Of a stretch of 46,116 nucleotides of DNA, positions 6,851 through 40,123 are shown in pieces (position 1 is the stretch's first letter; the number at the start of each line of letters is the position of its first letter). The stretch is from Patescibacteria group bacterium (GTDB taxonomy: Bacteria; Patescibacteriota; Minisyncoccia; HO2-45-28), in assembly GCA_038064075.1 (NCBI GenBank), contig JBBTTU010000017.1, positions 1-46,116 of the forward strand, read 5' to 3'. The notes beneath the pieces are model-generated. The model was given only the letters and a program-made list of their open reading frames with translations. It searched no databases and had not been told where the DNA came from. The translations under genes were made by a program, and so were the position numbers.

Positions 6851-6932
6851 AATCATTAGAACCAACGTAAAACTTTTTACGGTTTCTCATAATGTCTATA
6901 CAAAATAAAACTTTTGAAAACTTCTAACGGGG
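6851..6932. mobile_element. Degenerate ~82-bp CCCGTTAG/CTAACGGG miniature element
   Basis: Intact end CTTCTAACGGGG (6921-6932) contains the TAG stop of the neighbouring gene; decayed partner AATCATTAGAA at the family-typical distance. Confidence 0.4.
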
Positions 6933-7472: not shown

Positions 7473-7476
7473 CCCG

Positions 7477-7878
7477 TTAGAAGTTTCGGAAGTTAAAGAA
7501 ATTTTTAAAAAAGTCATAAAATTTTTGACGAAGAGTTTCGGATGAACCGGCTTTATTTTCAGGATTTTGAGCTTGTCGATCAACAATAATAGCCAGTTCC
7601 TCGTCCGGTTTTTTCAAGCTGAATCTGCGGCGCAATTCTTTTTCCAAACCGTAAGGACTGGAAAGATACTCGAGGCGGCTTTCCAAATCGTCTTTTTTCC
7701 GGCTGAGTTCTTCGCGATCTTTTTTAACCTTCAAATAAGCTTCGTTGACGGCGCTGAAACTAAGATAATTTTGAAACGCAAAACGGACGATGAACGCGGC
7801 CAAAACCGCAAGCAAAATAATCAGCGGCCGGGAAAAAATTATTTTTCGGATCAAACTCTGCCTTTGAAAACTCCTCAT
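7477..7878 (-). CDS. Septum formation initiator family protein (FtsB/DivIC-like)
   Basis: Single TM, coiled coil, LEYLSSPYGLEKELRRRFSLKKPDEE. Confidence 0.8.
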   Translation of the reverse strand: MRSFQRQSLIRKIIFSRPLIILLAVLAAFIVRFAFQNYLSFSAVNEAYLKVKKDREELSRKKDDLESRLEYLSSPYGLEKELRRRFSLKKPDEELAIIVDRQAQNPENKAGSSETLRQKFYDFFKNFFNFRNF

Positions 7879-7959
7879 CCCATTAGAAATTTGTCTTAAT
7901 TACGCTTTTCGACTAATATTATGGTATCCCCCGCCAGAATAACTTAATTTCTAACGGGA
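7878..7959. mobile_element. 82-bp miniature inverted-repeat element, CCCGTTAG family
   Basis: TCCCATTAGAAATT ... AATTTCTAACGGGA (13/14 inverted match), flanks CTCA/CTCG. Confidence 0.7.
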
Positions 7960-33737: not shown

Positions 33738-34160
33738 TTAATACCTGACTTCAAGTCCTCTTTCCACTCTTTTTACTCCCGCACACGGACTTCGGCCGAT
33801 TGAAGTGACTATCGTTAAATTGGGATCGGTTTTATCAACATCAATCGTGGCGCAGGAACCATTGTCAAAATCCAAACTAAATGAGCTGACCAGTCCCCCG
33901 CCGACTGAACGGCTCTGGCCGGCGCAGGTGATGGTTGAAGGACTGGAAGTTGAAAATTTGATTTCCGAAATCCAATAAATATCCCAGTAAATCACGCATT
34001 CGGCCGCGGAATCGGCGGCGTAAAAAGCGATTTGCGAATCGCGGCCGATGCCGGAAAGCCTGATTCTTCCCAAAACCAATCCTGAAATGCCCAAAGAAAC
34101 CGAAAGAGCGGCGGCGATGAACAAAATGGAAAACAATAATGAAAAGCCTTTATTTTTCAT
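33738..34160 (-). CDS. PilX-like minor pilin
   Basis: MKNKG|FSLLF lacking Glu5, SQIAFYAADSAAEC. Confidence 0.8.
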   Translation of the reverse strand: MKNKGFSLLFSILFIAAALSVSLGISGLVLGRIRLSGIGRDSQIAFYAADSAAECVIYWDIYWISEIKFSTSSPSTITCAGQSRSVGGGLVSSFSLDFDNGSCATIDVDKTDPNLTIVTSIGRSPCAGVKRVERGLEVRY

Positions 34161-34774
34161 GGCGCTAATTTTCTTTGGGAAACCAAAGTTTGCAAACTAA
34201 GCTCTTTTTTGGTTCCTTTGGTCTGAACCGAAGCTTTAATGCTGATTAAAATTCTTGGCTGCAAACTGTCGCCGCTGGCCGCGCCTGATACAATAAACGC
34301 CAAATCTTCAATTAAAACATCGCCCGAAGTCAAAGGTTGGAAAGAAGCGCCGCCGTCAGTGGATTTTTGGATGCGACTGTCAATTTGGCGGTAAATGACG
34401 CTTTGAAGCTGGGTGGTCTGAAAAGTAAGCGAAGAATCTCCGGCCGGACAGTCAAGCGGTCCGACACCGGCCGAAAAACCGCAATGATAATCGCGGCCGG
34501 TCCGTATTTCTTTAGCCATCATCTCAAGCCCGAAACGCAGATTGTCCTGCAAATTCACTTCGTTCTGGACTTTTCTCTCGGCATTCTGCAAATTTAAAAA
34601 TGTTGAAGTGGACATAAAAATAGCAACGGAAAAAACGCCTAAAGCGACTATCAATTCAATCAATGTGAACCCCGTTAGTAAGTTAATTTGTTCAGCTTTA
34701 TTGTTGATATTTTTGTTTTTTGCCATATTTTGACGGCTTACTGACAGGGTGAACCCTCGTTTATCCATAATCAT
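34157..34774 (-). CDS. PilW/PulJ-like minor pilin whose leader is extended by an 80-bp element
   Basis: G|FTLIELIVALGVF, LEMMAKEIRTG, C-terminal LQTLVSQR. Confidence 0.88.
   Translation of the reverse strand: MIMDKRGFTLSVSRQNMAKNKNINNKAEQINLLTGFTLIELIVALGVFSVAIFMSTSTFLNLQNAERKVQNEVNLQDNLRFGLEMMAKEIRTGRDYHCGFSAGVGPLDCPAGDSSLTFQTTQLQSVIYRQIDSRIQKSTDGGASFQPLTSGDVLIEDLAFIVSGAASGDSLQPRILISIKASVQTKGTKKELSLQTLVSQRKLAP
34670..34749. mobile_element. 80-bp miniature inverted-repeat element, copy A, in frame in a prepilin leader
   Basis: CCCCGTTAGTAAG...CTTACTGACAGGG flanked by TGAA/TGAA. Confidence 0.85.
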
Positions 34775-34777
34775 AAT

Positions 34778-35323
34778 TTATTCAAAAGACAAATTTAAAA
34801 GATGTTCTTCTAAAGTAAAACTCTGGGTGCCGTTTCCCTGCGGCCAAGAAATGTTTACGTCAAGTTTTATTTCCCGCGACGGCTCAACCTCGGTTATCAA
34901 AACCTGCCGGGAAAAAATGGTTTCATTGCCTGACGAATAATTAAATAAATTATTTGAAGAATCAAACTTGATTTCGGGACAAGCCGCCGCGCAAGGAGTA
35001 ATAGCGGCGTTGACGGCGTCAACATAGCAGCCATTCACGGCTTGGCAATCGGCCAAACCGTCAAGCCAAGAATTTCCGGCTAAAACATTGGAATCCCTGA
35101 CGTTGCGGATATATTCCACGGCTTCGCTCGCCAAAAAAAAGGCCGTGACTTGATTGGAAATGCGCACGGCTGAACGCACTCCCATTGATGAAAGCGACAA
35201 AATGCCGGATAAAGCCATGGCTAAAAGGCCGATTGAAACGATGCTTTCAAGAAGCGAAAAACCTTGGTGGAAGGATTTATTGGTATTTAGCGTTGATTGT
35301 TTGGTAAAGTTCATTTTATTCAA
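34778..35323 (-). CDS. PilV-like minor pilin
   Basis: G|FSLLESIVSIGLL, AFFLASEAVEYIRNVRD, FSRQV. Confidence 0.85.
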   Translation of the reverse strand: MNKMNFTKQSTLNTNKSFHQGFSLLESIVSIGLLAMALSGILSLSSMGVRSAVRISNQVTAFFLASEAVEYIRNVRDSNVLAGNSWLDGLADCQAVNGCYVDAVNAAITPCAAACPEIKFDSSNNLFNYSSGNETIFSRQVLITEVEPSREIKLDVNISWPQGNGTQSFTLEEHLLNLSFE

Positions 35324-35939
35324 TTGAAAGCTGGCCGGTCTGCCAGATGACGATGCGGCGCTCAGCGCCTTCGGGCGACTTTATTATAATTTCGGCGTCG
35401 GTGAACTCTACTCCATCAGCGCTGATCACAATATCCGGATTGGGCCTGACAAAAACAACATCAAGCCGGGCGATGGAACAATCCCCCGGCGGAGCCGATT
35501 TGGCGCCGGCGCAAACTTGAATAATTGATGGAAGATTTTGAATAAAAAACGTATCTGCCAGTTCAGCCGGAGCGTCATATTCCCGGTCGCCGTTGACATC
35601 GGCAAAAAGAATATAGGATTTTGCCGGAAAATTTTCAAAGTGAAGGCCGTAAGCCGGAAAAATTCCGGACCCGAATTCCCGCACCGCCAGCGCGGCGCCT
35701 TCGGCTTCGCGAAAAGAAAAAGCTATGGCTTGGGCGGTTCGCGAAAGCTCAAGCCGGCGGAAAAAATCCGGAAAATCAGCCAAAATCAGAGCCGATATCA
35801 TAAGAATGATTCCGACCGATATCATCATCTCAAGCAAAGTAAATCCCGCTGGTAAGTTAATTTGTTCAGTTTTATTGTTGATATTTTTGTTTTTTGCCAT
35901 ATTTTGACGGCTTACTAACGGGATAAACCCCTTGTTCAT
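35316..35939 (-). CDS. FimT/FimU-like minor pilin whose leader is extended by an 80-bp element
   Basis: G|FTLLEMMISVGII, YGLHF, LFAD, C-terminal TGQLSIE. Confidence 0.85.
   Translation of the reverse strand: MNKGFIPLVSRQNMAKNKNINNKTEQINLPAGFTLLEMMISVGIILMISALILADFPDFFRRLELSRTAQAIAFSFREAEGAALAVREFGSGIFPAYGLHFENFPAKSYILFADVNGDREYDAPAELADTFFIQNLPSIIQVCAGAKSAPPGDCSIARLDVVFVRPNPDIVISADGVEFTDAEIIIKSPEGAERRIVIWQTGQLSIE
35844..35923. mobile_element. 80-bp miniature inverted-repeat element, copy B, in frame in a prepilin leader
   Basis: TCCCGCTGGTAAG...CTTACTAACGGGA flanked by TAAA/TAAA; 73/80 identical to copy A. Confidence 0.85.
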
Positions 35940-35960
35940 TTTTTAATTATAACAAACCTG

Positions 35961-35982
35961 GTTAGAAATAACGATTTCTAAC
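35961..35982. repeat. Short hairpin made of the family end motif, containing the pilD stop codon
   Basis: GTTAGAAAT-AACG-ATTTCTAAC, perfect 9-bp inverted repeat. Confidence 0.6.
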
Positions 35983-36736
35983 GGAGCAGGGAAAAATACC
36001 AGGAAATAATTTTATTTCCCCACAGAAAAGCGCTAAGGCTCCCTAAAAATAAAAATGGGGCAAACGGAATCTGGATCTTCAGATTCTTTAATTTTTTGAC
36101 AAATACCAATGCCAGGCCGAAAATCGCTCCGATCCAAAAAGAAAATAAAAGCGCGAGCCCTCCCTCGGGCCAGCTGAGCATTAAACCGATCGCCAAAGCC
36201 AGCTTGGCGTCGCCAAAACCCATCCAGCGGCCGCGGGATGCCAGCCACAACCCGGCGAAAAAAATAAATAATCCGGCGCCGGCGAGCAAATGAATTATGA
36301 ATAAATAACGGGGAATTAAAAATAAGGAAAGAATAAAAGCGGTGAAAATCGCAATGTAAACCAAGCTGTCAGGGATTATTTTATGGCGGATGTCATAAAC
36401 CGAAATCATAAGCAAAAGCCAAAAAAATAAAATTGCTGTTCCGGTCAGAATCGGATTCTGAAATCCCAGCCGGTAATACACCAGCAGAAATATGAAAGCG
36501 CTGGCAATCTCAAAAAACGGATACTGGCGGGATATTTTGCCCAAGCATGTCCGGCACCGGCCTTTTAAAAATAAAAATGAAACAACCGGAATCAGTTCAA
36601 GCCAGCCGAGTTTCCGGCCGCAAAAAAAACACCGCGAGCCTCTAAAAATTAGAGACTCGCCGGTGTTTAAATTGAATATGATTACGTTTCCGAAACTTCC
36701 GAAAATCAGCCCTAAAACGAAAATCAAAACTGCCAT
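35978..36736 (-). CDS. pilD: Prepilin peptidase/N-methyltransferase (A24)
   Basis: GSFGNV, SRC..C, ELIPVVS...GRC..C...IS.QYP, YDIRH, MGFGDAKL, IPFAPFL; start set at MAVLIF. Confidence 0.95.
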   Translation of the reverse strand: MAVLIFVLGLIFGSFGNVIIFNLNTGESLIFRGSRCFFCGRKLGWLELIPVVSFLFLKGRCRTCLGKISRQYPFFEIASAFIFLLVYYRLGFQNPILTGTAILFFWLLLMISVYDIRHKIIPDSLVYIAIFTAFILSLFLIPRYLFIIHLLAGAGLFIFFAGLWLASRGRWMGFGDAKLALAIGLMLSWPEGGLALLFSFWIGAIFGLALVFVKKLKNLKIQIPFAPFLFLGSLSAFLWGNKIISWYFSLLR

Positions 36737-36765
36737 AAACCAGGGACTAGTGACTGGCAACTAGT

Positions 36766-37269
36766 TTAAGGCGTCACGTCATAACAATATCGTCCGGTTT
36801 CGTCAGTGCAGCCGTCGGCATCCGGACCGTCTACAACATCGCCGTCAACATCCCTGTCGCCGTTGAGCGCCGGATTGGTGCTTTCTTCCAAATTGCCTCC
36901 TAAATGATAATAAAGGCAGGTTTCACTGGCCTCGGCGCAATCGTTTGAAGCGTCAATAGTCGTTGAAATATAAGAATTATAAGGATAAACGGCTTGAGCC
37001 ACCGGATCGGTCGGCACCGTCGGAATATAATCGGGATCAAGATTGCTGGTTACGTCCGGATATTCGCCTTTGGAATCAAAATATAGTTCAAGAGCCAGCT
37101 GAATTTGCTTGATGTCAGCCACTCGGCGGGCATCGCGCGATTTTCGGCGGGCGCTGTTTAAGGAAGCCAGAACCACCGAAGCCAAAACGCCGATAATTGC
37201 GATAACGACTAAAAGTTCAATGAGAGTAAAACCTCTTTTGGCGCCGGATCGCGATTTTAATTTAAACAT
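36766..37269 (-). CDS. Probable major type IV pilin (GspG-like)
   Basis: G|FTLIELLVVIAIIGVLASVVLASL, RDARRVADIKQIQLALELY; own intergenic promoter region. Confidence 0.9.
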   Translation of the reverse strand: MFKLKSRSGAKRGFTLIELLVVIAIIGVLASVVLASLNSARRKSRDARRVADIKQIQLALELYFDSKGEYPDVTSNLDPDYIPTVPTDPVAQAVYPYNSYISTTIDASNDCAEASETCLYYHLGGNLEESTNPALNGDRDVDGDVVDGPDADGCTDETGRYCYDVTP

Positions 37270-39673: not shown

Positions 39674-40123
39674 TTAAGGACTGGCCTCTTGCCAGCCGGG
39701 CGATTTGCCCAAAATGGAATCGGTTTCCAAATAATAATGCAAAGTGTAGGCTTCGGGACTGTCCGATTCGTAGCAATAAACATATGAACCGGCTGCCAAA
39801 CAAACTCCGCTCCCGCCTCCGAGAGGATCAACCGCCAGCGACGAACTGACCACTCCTTCATTAATTAAAGCTTGAGACAAGCAGTCGCTTGTGCCGTTGA
39901 TTACCGCAAGAGCGCAAACCGGATACTGCCTACGATTGACATGATAAATATCAAGCATATTTTGAATCTGTTTGATGTCTTCGGCCCGCCGGGCGTCGCG
40001 GCCGCGGGCTCTGGCGCCGGTAATTGAAACAAAAATAATGGATAAAATAAAACCGGCGATTGCCAAAACCACCAGCAACTCAACAATAGTAAATCCTCGT
40101 TTAATTGAAAATTTTTTATTCAT
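39674..40123 (-). CDS. Type IV pilin-like protein (GspG-like)
   Basis: G|FTIVELLVVLAI, RDARRAEDIKQIQ. Confidence 0.88.
   Translation of the reverse strand: MNKKFSIKRGFTIVELLVVLAIAGFILSIIFVSITGARARGRDARRAEDIKQIQNMLDIYHVNRRQYPVCALAVINGTSDCLSQALINEGVVSSSLAVDPLGGGSGVCLAAGSYVYCYESDSPEAYTLHYYLETDSILGKSPGWQEASP

Follow-up and report, generated by a model that had tools for sequence, protein, structure and literature searches.

Two copies of an 80-bp element with inverted ends lie at the prepilin cleavage codons of two minor pilin genes on contig JBBTTU010000017.1 of a Patescibacteria group bacterium (assembly GCA_038064075.1). The stretch of DNA analysed here, which we call the window, comprises positions 1-46,116 of that contig and forms part of a host genome of 557,881 bases in 32 contigs that is 96.65% complete. 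We favor the possibility that the two copies are insertions, resembling MITEs (miniature inverted-repeat transposable elements), of a wider family whose longer members encode a GIY-YIG nuclease, that such insertions have been filtered for frame and orientation, and that the peptide they add to the pilin would be removed with the leader by the host prepilin peptidase PilD. We put the probability of this reading as a whole at roughly two in three. The features that carry the argument are the following.

34670-34749, minus strand: 80-bp element, copy A, in the minor pilin A gene; gene-sense sequence CCCTGTCAGTAAG...CTTACTAACGGGG
34666-34669, minus strand: copy A duplication, right side in gene sense; TGAA on the plus strand, TTCA in gene sense; Phe codon and first Thr base of the rebuilt cleavage site
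34750-34753, minus strand: copy A duplication, left side in gene sense; TTCA; part of the original, now upstream, Gly-Phe-Thr
35844-35923, minus strand: 80-bp element, copy B, in the minor pilin B gene; gene-sense sequence TCCCGTTAGTAAG...CTTACCAGCGGGA
35840-35843, minus strand: copy B duplication beside the rebuilt site; TAAA on the plus strand, TTTA in gene sense
35924-35927, minus strand: copy B duplication, upstream side in gene sense; TTTA
34157-34774, minus strand: minor pilin A, 205 aa; leader of 34 aa from the original start, prepilin motif from residue 35
35316-35939, minus strand: minor pilin B, 207 aa; leader of 32 aa from the original start
35978-36760, minus strand: PilD-type prepilin peptidase / N-methyltransferase; PF06750 (A24_N_bact) E 3.8e-28, PF01478 (Peptidase_A24) E 1.2e-14

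Two insertions at prepilin cleavage codons

The two copies are identical at 73 of 80 positions, the mismatches falling at element positions 1, 6, 8, 27, 74, 77 and 80 and six of the seven lying within the 13-nt ends. In each copy the ends are complementary at 11 of 13 positions, and the consensus of the four ends is YCCCGTTAGTAAG. Both copies are placed right after GGG TTY A, and the terminal GGG or GGA of the element forms the Gly codon ahead of TTY ACN. Element and duplication together add 84 bases (80 + 4), which preserves the reading frame of both pilin genes. The sole open frame of each unit is this read-through of 26-27 codons; it includes an in-frame ATG in both copies, and no gene for a mobility enzyme is present. 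When the element was flipped in silico, a stop appeared at the fifth codon in both genes. The original prediction had described this arrangement in some detail (the paired copies with their inverted ends, a separate duplication for each, the in-frame insertion inside GGG-TTY-ACN with its new Gly codon, the stop on inversion and an adjoining pilD gene), and all of these particulars were confirmed.

The gene at 35978-36760 is assigned as a PilD-type prepilin peptidase on the strength of its A24_N_bact and Peptidase_A24 matches, and it is the next gene upstream of pilin B in the same row. Prepilin peptidase cuts after the Gly of the GFxxxE motif and discards the leader. At the rebuilt site both pilins have Gly at -1, Phe at +1 and Glu at +5, followed by a hydrophobic helix, and PF07963 (N_methyl) and TIGR02532 (above cut-off) match at this second Gly-Phe site (residues 35-54 and 31-53). 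Counted from the original starts the leaders are 32-34 aa long, as against some 4-22 residues before the Gly in aligned orthologues; leaders of 15-30 aa exist among type IVb pilins. The original starts of both genes abut or overlap the preceding genes, which fits coupled translation. The public gene call of pilin B (P0121, 194 aa) begins at the ATG within the element.

A chance origin of the paired insertions at prepilin sites is rejected. The host genome contains 42,183 TNNA positions and four Gly-Phe-Thr prepilin sites, two of which are occupied, and a core 27-mer of the element matched twice in the window and in none of 100 shuffles. The 80-bp sequence has only these two full-length copies in the host genome. 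We found no full-length match to it among eight other genomes of the same taxonomic family (G001-G008, which with the host make up the nine genomes of the order); 400 other genomes of the class gave only short A-rich partial matches of 17-53 bases, and an exact scan of species genomes with the 27-mer gave none. No Rfam family matched the pilin copies, nor any of the related elements described below that were searched (the 108-bp and 282-bp units, the G007 elements and five other family members); the single hit, to a snoRNA model at E 0.84, was judged to be noise.

We looked for orthologues with empty sites and found them, at the protein level, for both genes. All 12 aligned homologues of pilin A (P0002 to P0016) are without residues 8-35, the 28 inserted residues, and the nearest of them, P0002 and P0003, are 86-87% identical to pilin A and are shorter by exactly 28 codons. 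The nearest homologue of pilin B, P0122, is 86-88% identical to it by two measures and is again without exactly 28 codons. At the corresponding loci of the family both sites are empty in six of eight genomes (G001, G002, G003, G005, G006 and G008), and in G004, where the locus contains only the B orthologue, its site is empty. A metagenome scan with P0002 returned only distant pilins, and the DNA of the closest empty alleles was not recovered.

It is conceivable that no transposition took place and that the 5' end of one pilin gene was duplicated or gene-converted onto the other, given that the copies are 1.1 kb apart in paralogous genes and are the only ones in the host genome. Each copy, however, duplicates the Phe codon of its own gene (TTCA in A, TTTA in B), and conversion would not have created this bracketing by the tetranucleotide of the recipient gene. 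In addition, the similarity between A and B stops at the element ends, beyond which the flanking coding sequences have only the pilin motif in common; for each pilin there are separate empty-site orthologues; and the same ends with 4-bp duplications occur at unrelated loci. Taken together, the own-gene Phe duplications, the similarity that ends with the element and the empty orthologues exclude a duplicated or converted 5' end, which the original prediction had named as a case that would overturn it, and we assign this account a negligible probability. The same junctions and orthologues support the view, also put forward there, that the two copies are independent insertions.

With respect to the natural population, eight sequencing runs with this DNA were listed, from two studies and all of them groundwater metagenomes kept as contigs. 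Groundwater contigs from a second study bridge the filled site of copy B without a difference (run X5 record 10 and run X7 record 21). The contigs stop in or near copy A, as would be expected since copy A is a repeat. One further contig of 190 bases (run X6 record 14) comes from another organism; its match at the copy A junction is confined to 34 bases, with 4 differences, after which it runs on into different sequence ending ...TTCTAACGGGGT; it is probably another pilin with another member of the element family from the same groundwater.

The remaining pilin-like genes of the window are these.

33738-34160, minus strand: further small pilin-like gene in the same tightly packed gene row
34778-35323, minus strand: pilin-like gene without interruption, located between A and B; Gly-Phe-Ser motif; weak Pfam N_methyl match (E 8.1e-4, below cut-off)
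36766-37269, minus strand: major-pilin-like gene (GspG/PilA-like); Gly-Phe-Thr site unoccupied
39674-40123, minus strand: second major-type pilin; Gly-Phe-Thr site unoccupied

The gene at 34778-35323 abuts or overlaps its neighbours at its ends, and the row is therefore packed in the manner of a single operon. A 25-base palindrome (35960-35984) lies between pilD and pilin B; it is composed of two abutting end-like halves, CCGTTAGAAAT and ATTTCTAACC, 4 bases apart, and the TAG stop of pilD falls inside its CCGTTAG half. This palindrome could be a minimal or decayed element, or it could be a terminator hairpin.

Recurrence at the prepilin site and the insert as a probable part of the leader

A different element occupies the same codon in another genus of the family. 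In G007 a 62-bp palindromic element with a 20-nt terminal inverted repeat, YCCAGCACTACA..., is present in both the A and the B orthologue, with TTTA and TTCA as the flanks; it keeps the frame and contains neither an internal ATG nor a Met. These are its only two copies in that genome, and G006, of the same genus, is empty.

To look for such insertions without regard to frame, we used the pattern GGNTTYA-N50-80-GGNTTYACNYTNNTNGAR, which matched in 45 of 401 genomes of the class, against 3 control matches. We examined 41 of the 55 places listed (30 loci and 9 extra stretches, the latter chosen because YCCC directly follows TTYA; none of the 14 remaining places begins so). Terminal inverted repeats of at least 12 nt were present at 12 of the 41, and all 12 of these elements were in frame and open and had identical flanks. 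Three elements with short or gapped ends were all in frame and open as well, and 26 matches were without such ends, 7 of them in frame, which is the chance level. The class elements at pilin sites belong to several unrelated end families (CCCCGCACCTTTT, CCCCGTTACTCCGC, TCCCACACGTAAAA, CCCCGTTAGAG and others) that have only their YCCC...GGGR tips in common.

An exact pattern, CCCGTTAG-N36-66-CTAACGGGR-TTYACNYTNNTNGAR, matched 115 stretches in the species-genome collection, labelled as several phyla. We examined 80 of the corresponding loci, whose labels include 30 candidate phyla radiation (CPR)/Patescibacteria, 28 Planctomycetota, 13 Omnitrophota, 3 from one Aegiribacteria genome, 1 Nitrospirae and 1 Pseudomonadota; Saccharibacteria is among the labels of the genomes hit. 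They contain 84 matches, of which 77 are in frame and open, 6 are out of frame but open and 1 is out of frame and closed; flanks are identical in 68. The original prediction had proposed scanning CPR genomes for the element and testing for enrichment at GFT codons and for in-frame lengths. Such lengths predominate among the elements of both scans, in 12/12 and 3/3 of the class elements and 77/84 of the species-genome matches.

The codon upstream of the element is still GGN in 58 of the 84 species-genome matches and is GCN in most of the others. Among the 68 pilin-site insertions with identical flanks, 18 have an original upstream codon that is no longer Gly and is mostly Ala (GCN); examples are L217, L221, L230, L233, L234, L239, L240, L246, L247, L250, L270 and L287. 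Such a loss of the Gly would fit the view that the former cleavage residue is no longer constrained, or that a decoy site there is selected against. We also observed leaders in which two or three elements are arranged in tandem or nested, each followed by a rebuilt Gly-Phe-Thr (L215, L261, L263, L268, L226, L232, L252 and L084). The tandem copies are identical in L215 and have diverged in L261.

If inserts of this kind are read as part of a prepilin leader, they should look like leader, and a cytoplasmic prepilin leader is expected under the positive-inside rule to be positively charged and non-hydrophobic. The 76 distinct in-frame pilin-site elements contain no stop in the orientation found, and 31 of them would contain one if flipped. 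Net charge averages +2.2 as found, with 67 of the 76 inserts positive; the 45 elements that stay open when flipped average -0.76 in the flipped reading. Grouping the elements gave 67 clusters; 39 of their representatives are open in either orientation, and the charge as found exceeds that of the flipped reading in 32 of these and falls below it in 4 (p ~2e-6). Since Met is present in only 17 of the 76, most of these elements must be read from the original start. The rules of frame, stop and charge at prepilin sites indicate selection on a translated product, and we infer that in the two window genes the insert is probably translated and that PilD probably cleaves after the rebuilt Gly.

A plausible scenario that would account for these observations is as follows. 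The two 80-bp units would be non-autonomous, MITE-like members of a family with inverted ends YCCC...GGGR, which would be moved by the product of the single gene in the ~280-bp members, a ~90-aa GIY-YIG nuclease of the Slx1/UPF0213 kind. The element would insert on the TTYA of GGN-TTY-ACN with duplication of 4 bp, and its terminal GGR together with the duplicated TTYA would re-create Gly-Phe-Thr before the untouched hydrophobic segment. An element length of 2 modulo 3 would maintain the frame, and only the stop-free, positively charged orientation would survive. The pilin would then be made from its original operon-coupled start with a leader of 32-34 aa, and the neighbouring PilD would cleave after the rebuilt Gly to leave a mature pilin the same as before the insertion, which would make the insertion close to neutral and allow it to persist. 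The first Gly-Phe would be ignored because no hydrophobic segment follows it. Gly at -1 beside the membrane segment is the main known requirement of PilD.

A wider family and its GIY-YIG units

The host genome contains at least six complete units that share ends, among them four on contig C4.

C4:15575-15682: family unit of 108 bp, TGAA on both sides, ends YCCCGTTAGAAG..CTTCTAACGGGR
C4:33093-33172: family unit of 80 bp, TGAA on both sides, ends YCCCGTTAGAAG..CTTCTAACGGGR
C4:68028-68309: family unit of 282 bp, TGAA on both sides, ends YCCCGTTAGAAG..CTTCTAACGGGR
C4:73212-73319: family unit of 108 bp, TGAA on both sides, ends YCCCGTTAGAAG..CTTCTAACGGGR

Each of the four is placed on an ATGAA start codon, and in three cases that codon is part of an ATGA stop/start overlap. 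The left TGAA preserves the stop of the upstream gene, and the final base of the element (A or G) combines with the right TGAA to give the downstream gene an ATG or GTG. The 80-bp unit stands at the N-terminus of a Rossmann-fold gene, where it is read through in frame, and the C4 members on start codons have an in-frame ATG 18 nt before their end. Judged by sequence, these units make up a family defined by the ends YCCCGTTAG...CTAACGGGR and by 4-bp TNNA duplications, and the pilin copies belong to it.

The 282-bp unit contains a single open reading frame (ORF) of 93 aa with a GIY-YIG match (PF01541, E 1.3e-15) and no other gene. The protein consists of the catalytic domain only; TIGR01453 scored 23.8 bits, far below its 56-bit cut-off, and the nearest solved sequences, UPF0213 BH0048 (1zg2) and SLX1 (4xlg), are both weak matches. 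The ORF begins on the host ATG (ATGAA followed directly by CCCC...) and stops at a TAA inside the right inverted end. In G004 and G001 the same two genes are joined by an uninterrupted ATGA overlap, the empty site of this unit. Its ends have the first 9 bases in common with the pilin copies, which encode no GIY-YIG domain, and at least 13 with the 108-bp units. Homologues of the protein were found in 101 of 151 class genomes, a single genome having as many as 10 matches, and a 275-284-bp unit with such ends is present at 17 of the 29 best homologue loci as well as at the host locus. Identical 4-bp flanks were seen in 12 of these 18 units, and 10 are placed two bases after an ATG.

We infer that the GIY-YIG protein is probably the enzyme that moves the family, because it is the only gene in the long units, three DDE transposase families were not found and the palindromes of the host's Y1 genes are unrelated. 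The DDE families PF01609, PF00665 and PF13358 gave no match in the host genome, which at 96.65% completeness leaves their absence unproven; the search covered these three families. The host has three Y1 (RAYT-like) transposase genes of 216-232 aa, as follows.

C2:46322-47011: Y1 (IS200/RAYT-like) gene
C6 42334-42558, minus strand: Y1 (IS200/RAYT-like) gene, position of the Y1_Tnp match
C9:11629-12279: Y1 (IS200/RAYT-like) gene

Each Y1 gene is bracketed by its own short palindrome, which differs among the three. We considered the Y1 transposases as the mover and rejected them, given that these flanking palindromes are unrelated to the CCCGTTAG ends.

Two further GIY-YIG genes have surroundings of other kinds. 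The host genome has another small GIY-YIG gene at C19:402-693 (L060), just after an smpB-like gene. Its product of 86 aa shares 39% identity with the first, and the gene is bracketed by perfect inverted repeats of ~20 nt with a different sequence, CCCCCACACTAATTAAGGAT; one more lone end-like match lies at C2:11263. The only GIY-YIG gene of G007 (L330, G007:C11:4931-5970) has on either side a copy of the ~60 bases with which a tRNA-like sequence begins. It looks like an insertion into a tRNA gene that rebuilds the 5' part of that gene, unlike the inverted-end units in style.

Short elements with the family ends are widespread. The pattern YCCCGTTAG-N36-66-CTAACGGGR occurs 374 times in 117 of the 401 class genomes, and its backwards control 0 times. 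We examined 79 of these occurrences, which are all those listed, the first few per genome. Flanks are identical at 53, and 46 of those have the form TNNA. Where the flank is TGRA (n = 25), 22 are preceded by A, vs 23.6% of all TGAR in the host genome, and in 18 of the 25 at least 50 open codons follow the rebuilt ATG or GTG. ORF interiors account for nine of the 79, with 60 or more open codons to either side of the element, and 39 of the 79 have a frame-keeping length. The family thus inserts at TNNA and duplicates 4 bp, and it is found for the most part at places where the interrupted feature is restored by the element's ends.

A number of other members and partial members were noted. A G+C-rich subfamily of ~70 bp with the same ends and two internal hairpins (GTAGCCCCGCC...GGTCC...GGAC...GCGAGAC) is found in many genomes of different families, often at the frame-keeping length of 71 bp (L145-L148, L150, L152-L155, L157, L158 and others); three copies tested (L145, L152 and L157) had no Rfam match. 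In the window, an 82-bp member with ends TCCCATTAGAAATT...AATTTCTAACGGGA lies at 7878-7959 on the ATGAG start of a minus-strand gene that resembles, by eye, a septum-formation initiator. Its flanks are CTCA and CTCG, one duplicated base having changed, with the result that the upstream ATG reads ACG on the gene strand. Partnerless single ends (CCCGTTAGAA...) occur in the window at 7474 (plus strand) and at 6930, 41870 and 45228 (minus strand), and in the rest of the host genome at C24:7520, C26:28081 and C31:17809. Several of the single ends directly precede gene starts and give an apparent extra peptide, Met-Lys-Thr/Ile-Ser-Asn-Gly, before the real Met or Val, and single ends could in this way shift automatic start calls.

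Competing readings and known systems

A number of observations weigh against the reading that we favor. Both window copies contain an in-frame ATG, so the upstream start is not necessarily the one that is used. The divergence between the copies is concentrated in their ends, which means that they may no longer be mobile. Four groundwater contig runs gave no joints, no empty-site form and no differences, although this result is neutral with regard to mobility and expression. G007 contains no GIY-YIG unit with ends matching its 62-bp pilin element. We know of no transposase that consists of a ~90-aa GIY-YIG domain, the GIY-YIG gene could be mere cargo, and the host does have its three Y1 transposase genes. 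Furthermore, by our reading of the two class scans, pilin sites hold only 2 of the 374 exact-ended class elements, and the pilin leader is therefore a minor refuge for this family.

This last point bears on the claim of the original prediction that pilin leaders serve as a safe haven, which the comparison supports with a qualification. Unrelated elements do occupy the same codon, in frame, stop-free and with positively charged inserts, and the reading extends well beyond this genome. Pilin leaders are, however, neither the sole nor the main refuge: most members of the family sit at start codons or gene boundaries, and others are in frame within ORFs. Random choice of TNNA would nevertheless predict only about 1 in 10,000 insertions at prepilin sites (4/42,183), as against the observed 2/374, an excess of about 50-fold. 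This excess and the tandem arrays point to an insertion hot spot; selection in gene-dense genomes, together with slippage between 7-8-bp direct repeats, could be an alternative source of both.

Three other explanations accept the insertions and differ as to their consequence. The element may supply a new start, in which case translation would begin at the internal ATG (Met-Ala-Lys-Asn-Lys...), the leader would be ~19-21 aa, the old start would be an untranslated remnant and PilD would still cut at the rebuilt Gly. The ATG is there in both window copies, the public call P0121 uses it, and the start-codon members of the family have an in-frame ATG 18 nt from their end. Yet Met is found in only 17 of the 76 pilin-site elements and in none of those in G007, and the abutting or overlapping original starts favor coupled initiation at those starts. 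A new start would also make frame continuity with the upstream sequence needless, and frame is kept by 77 of 84 matches and by 15 of 15 elements. We therefore regard a new start as unlikely.

Alternatively, the insertions may have been kept because they are useful, with an mRNA hairpin tuning the amount of minor pilin or a long leader tuning the timing of processing. It could be argued for this that in two genera different elements fill the same two minor pilins and leave free the two major-type pilins, which have the same motif, and that stable RNA hairpins are predicted (-41 kcal/mol, z -6 to -8, in G007; -20 to -21, z -2.3 to -3.0, in the window). The coincidence of two sites out of four in two genera is weak evidence, however, since it has a chance of about 1 in 6, and major-type pilins are occupied in other genomes. 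Nor would usefulness explain why the closest relatives and six of eight family genomes are without an insert, why internal sequences are unconserved (67 clusters among 76 elements) or why the family is also found at start codons, at gene boundaries and inside other ORFs; we consider it improbable. It is more doubtful still that the insertions have disabled both pilins, whether by a leader that is too long, a first Gly-Phe that acts as a decoy or a hairpin that blocks translation, and that the genes are heading to loss. Leaders of 32-34 aa do exceed the ~4-22 residues that precede the Gly in orthologues, but both genes are full length, align to the last residue of their orthologues and are without a frameshift or stop; the copies have diverged at 7 of 80 bases while their frames remained open; and the frame, stop and charge rules indicate selection on the translated product. 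We would rate such disablement a slim prospect.

There is a substantial chance that the GIY-YIG element underlying our favored reading is a new class of transposon. In its fullest form, which we put forward tentatively as a possibility that falls short of even odds, this would be an undescribed class of bacterial DNA transposon whose sole protein is a ~90-aa Slx1-like GIY-YIG nuclease and whose ends appear shaped to repair the genes they hit. Its YCCCGTTAG end would open the nuclease ORF on a host start codon, and its CTAACGGGR end would carry the stop and, with the duplicated TGAA, rebuild the host start. On prepilin genes the CTAACGGGR end would rebuild the Gly-Phe site, and the peptidase would remove the insert. 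If this were true, the tandem arrays and the ~50-fold excess would make the prepilin motif a true insertion hot spot and not only a site of survivors.

Several consequences would follow from the favored reading. Selfish DNA would have a route into the coding sequence of very small, gene-dense genomes, in which either host processing or the end of the element itself restores the product, and prepilin peptidase would need to accept leaders lengthened by 20-30 residues. Many of the pilins and pseudopilins annotated with an unusually long leader or a shifted start, of which P0121 is an example, may be ordinary pilins with an insert, and annotation is affected more generally in that insertions shift start-codon calls, for instance through a six-residue extension before the true start. 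The findings connect a small GIY-YIG gene, which is widespread and multi-copy, with inverted ends, with 4-bp duplications and with short derivatives numbering in the hundreds, and the question of whether a bare GIY-YIG nuclease can move DNA becomes directly testable.

Precedent for in-frame insertion of small repeats comes from the Rickettsia palindromic elements and from other in-frame MITEs (ERIC, YPAL and the 107-bp form of the Correia element), which are inserted in genes for conserved proteins and are tolerated there (PMC10969869, PMC2229807). The Yersinia element YPAL offers a case in which a fusion is reported to form part of a predicted signal peptide, with no report of repeated hits on a cleavage site (PMC2229807). 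The likeness is that all are small palindromic repeats or repeats bounded by terminal inverted repeats, without a transposase, that sit in frame in genes; the known elements keep their peptide in the mature protein, while those described here are in a leader that is normally cut off and have an end that rebuilds the cleavage motif. The present elements differ further in their 4-bp TNNA duplication, their YCCC/GGGR tips and the ends that they share with GIY-YIG nuclease units. The likeness to the Rickettsia elements is one of behaviour only.

Inteins and self-splicing introns are selfish inserts, in genes that are essential or conserved, that are made harmless by removal after transcription or translation. 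They remove themselves, whereas here the host PilD would remove the insert in the course of its ordinary work, and the insert has no catalytic role and no homology to inteins or introns. With regard to the nuclease, GIY-YIG enzymes are known as parts of selfish elements, and homing endonucleases are reported to have DNA-binding domains, to recognise the empty allele and not their own ends, and to be without inverted ends or target duplication (PMC1564403). The free-standing GIY-YIG homing genes of the I-TevI and Seg type, and Slx1/UPF0213, have the catalytic domain in common with the 282-bp unit. Unlike the homing genes, the present units are ~280 bp long, have inverted ends of 13-19 nt and 4-bp duplications, and come with short derivatives that contain no gene.

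Among transposons, piggyBac has a 4-bp target duplication of the T..A form and short inverted ends, but it is eukaryotic, has a large DDE transposase and uses a fixed TTAA. The present elements are like it in their 4-bp duplication and short ends, and excision could in principle restore the site exactly; unlike piggyBac, they contain no DDE gene. The REP/REPIN sequences with their RAYT enzymes, and the IS200/IS605 elements, are similar in that a small enzyme, for which a genome has one gene or a few, acts in trans to move short palindromic repeats. To our knowledge Y1 elements do not duplicate their target, whereas the flanks of the present elements vary from site to site and match on both sides of each element. 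In a literature search that did not cover most subscription journals, we found no account of elements placed where prepilins are cleaved, nor any of GIY-YIG units that have inverted ends and duplications. What is of a known kind here is the in-frame insertion of a MITE-like element; what sets the present case apart is the site in a leader that is normally cut off, the ends that rebuild cleavage and start signals, and the link to a GIY-YIG nuclease.

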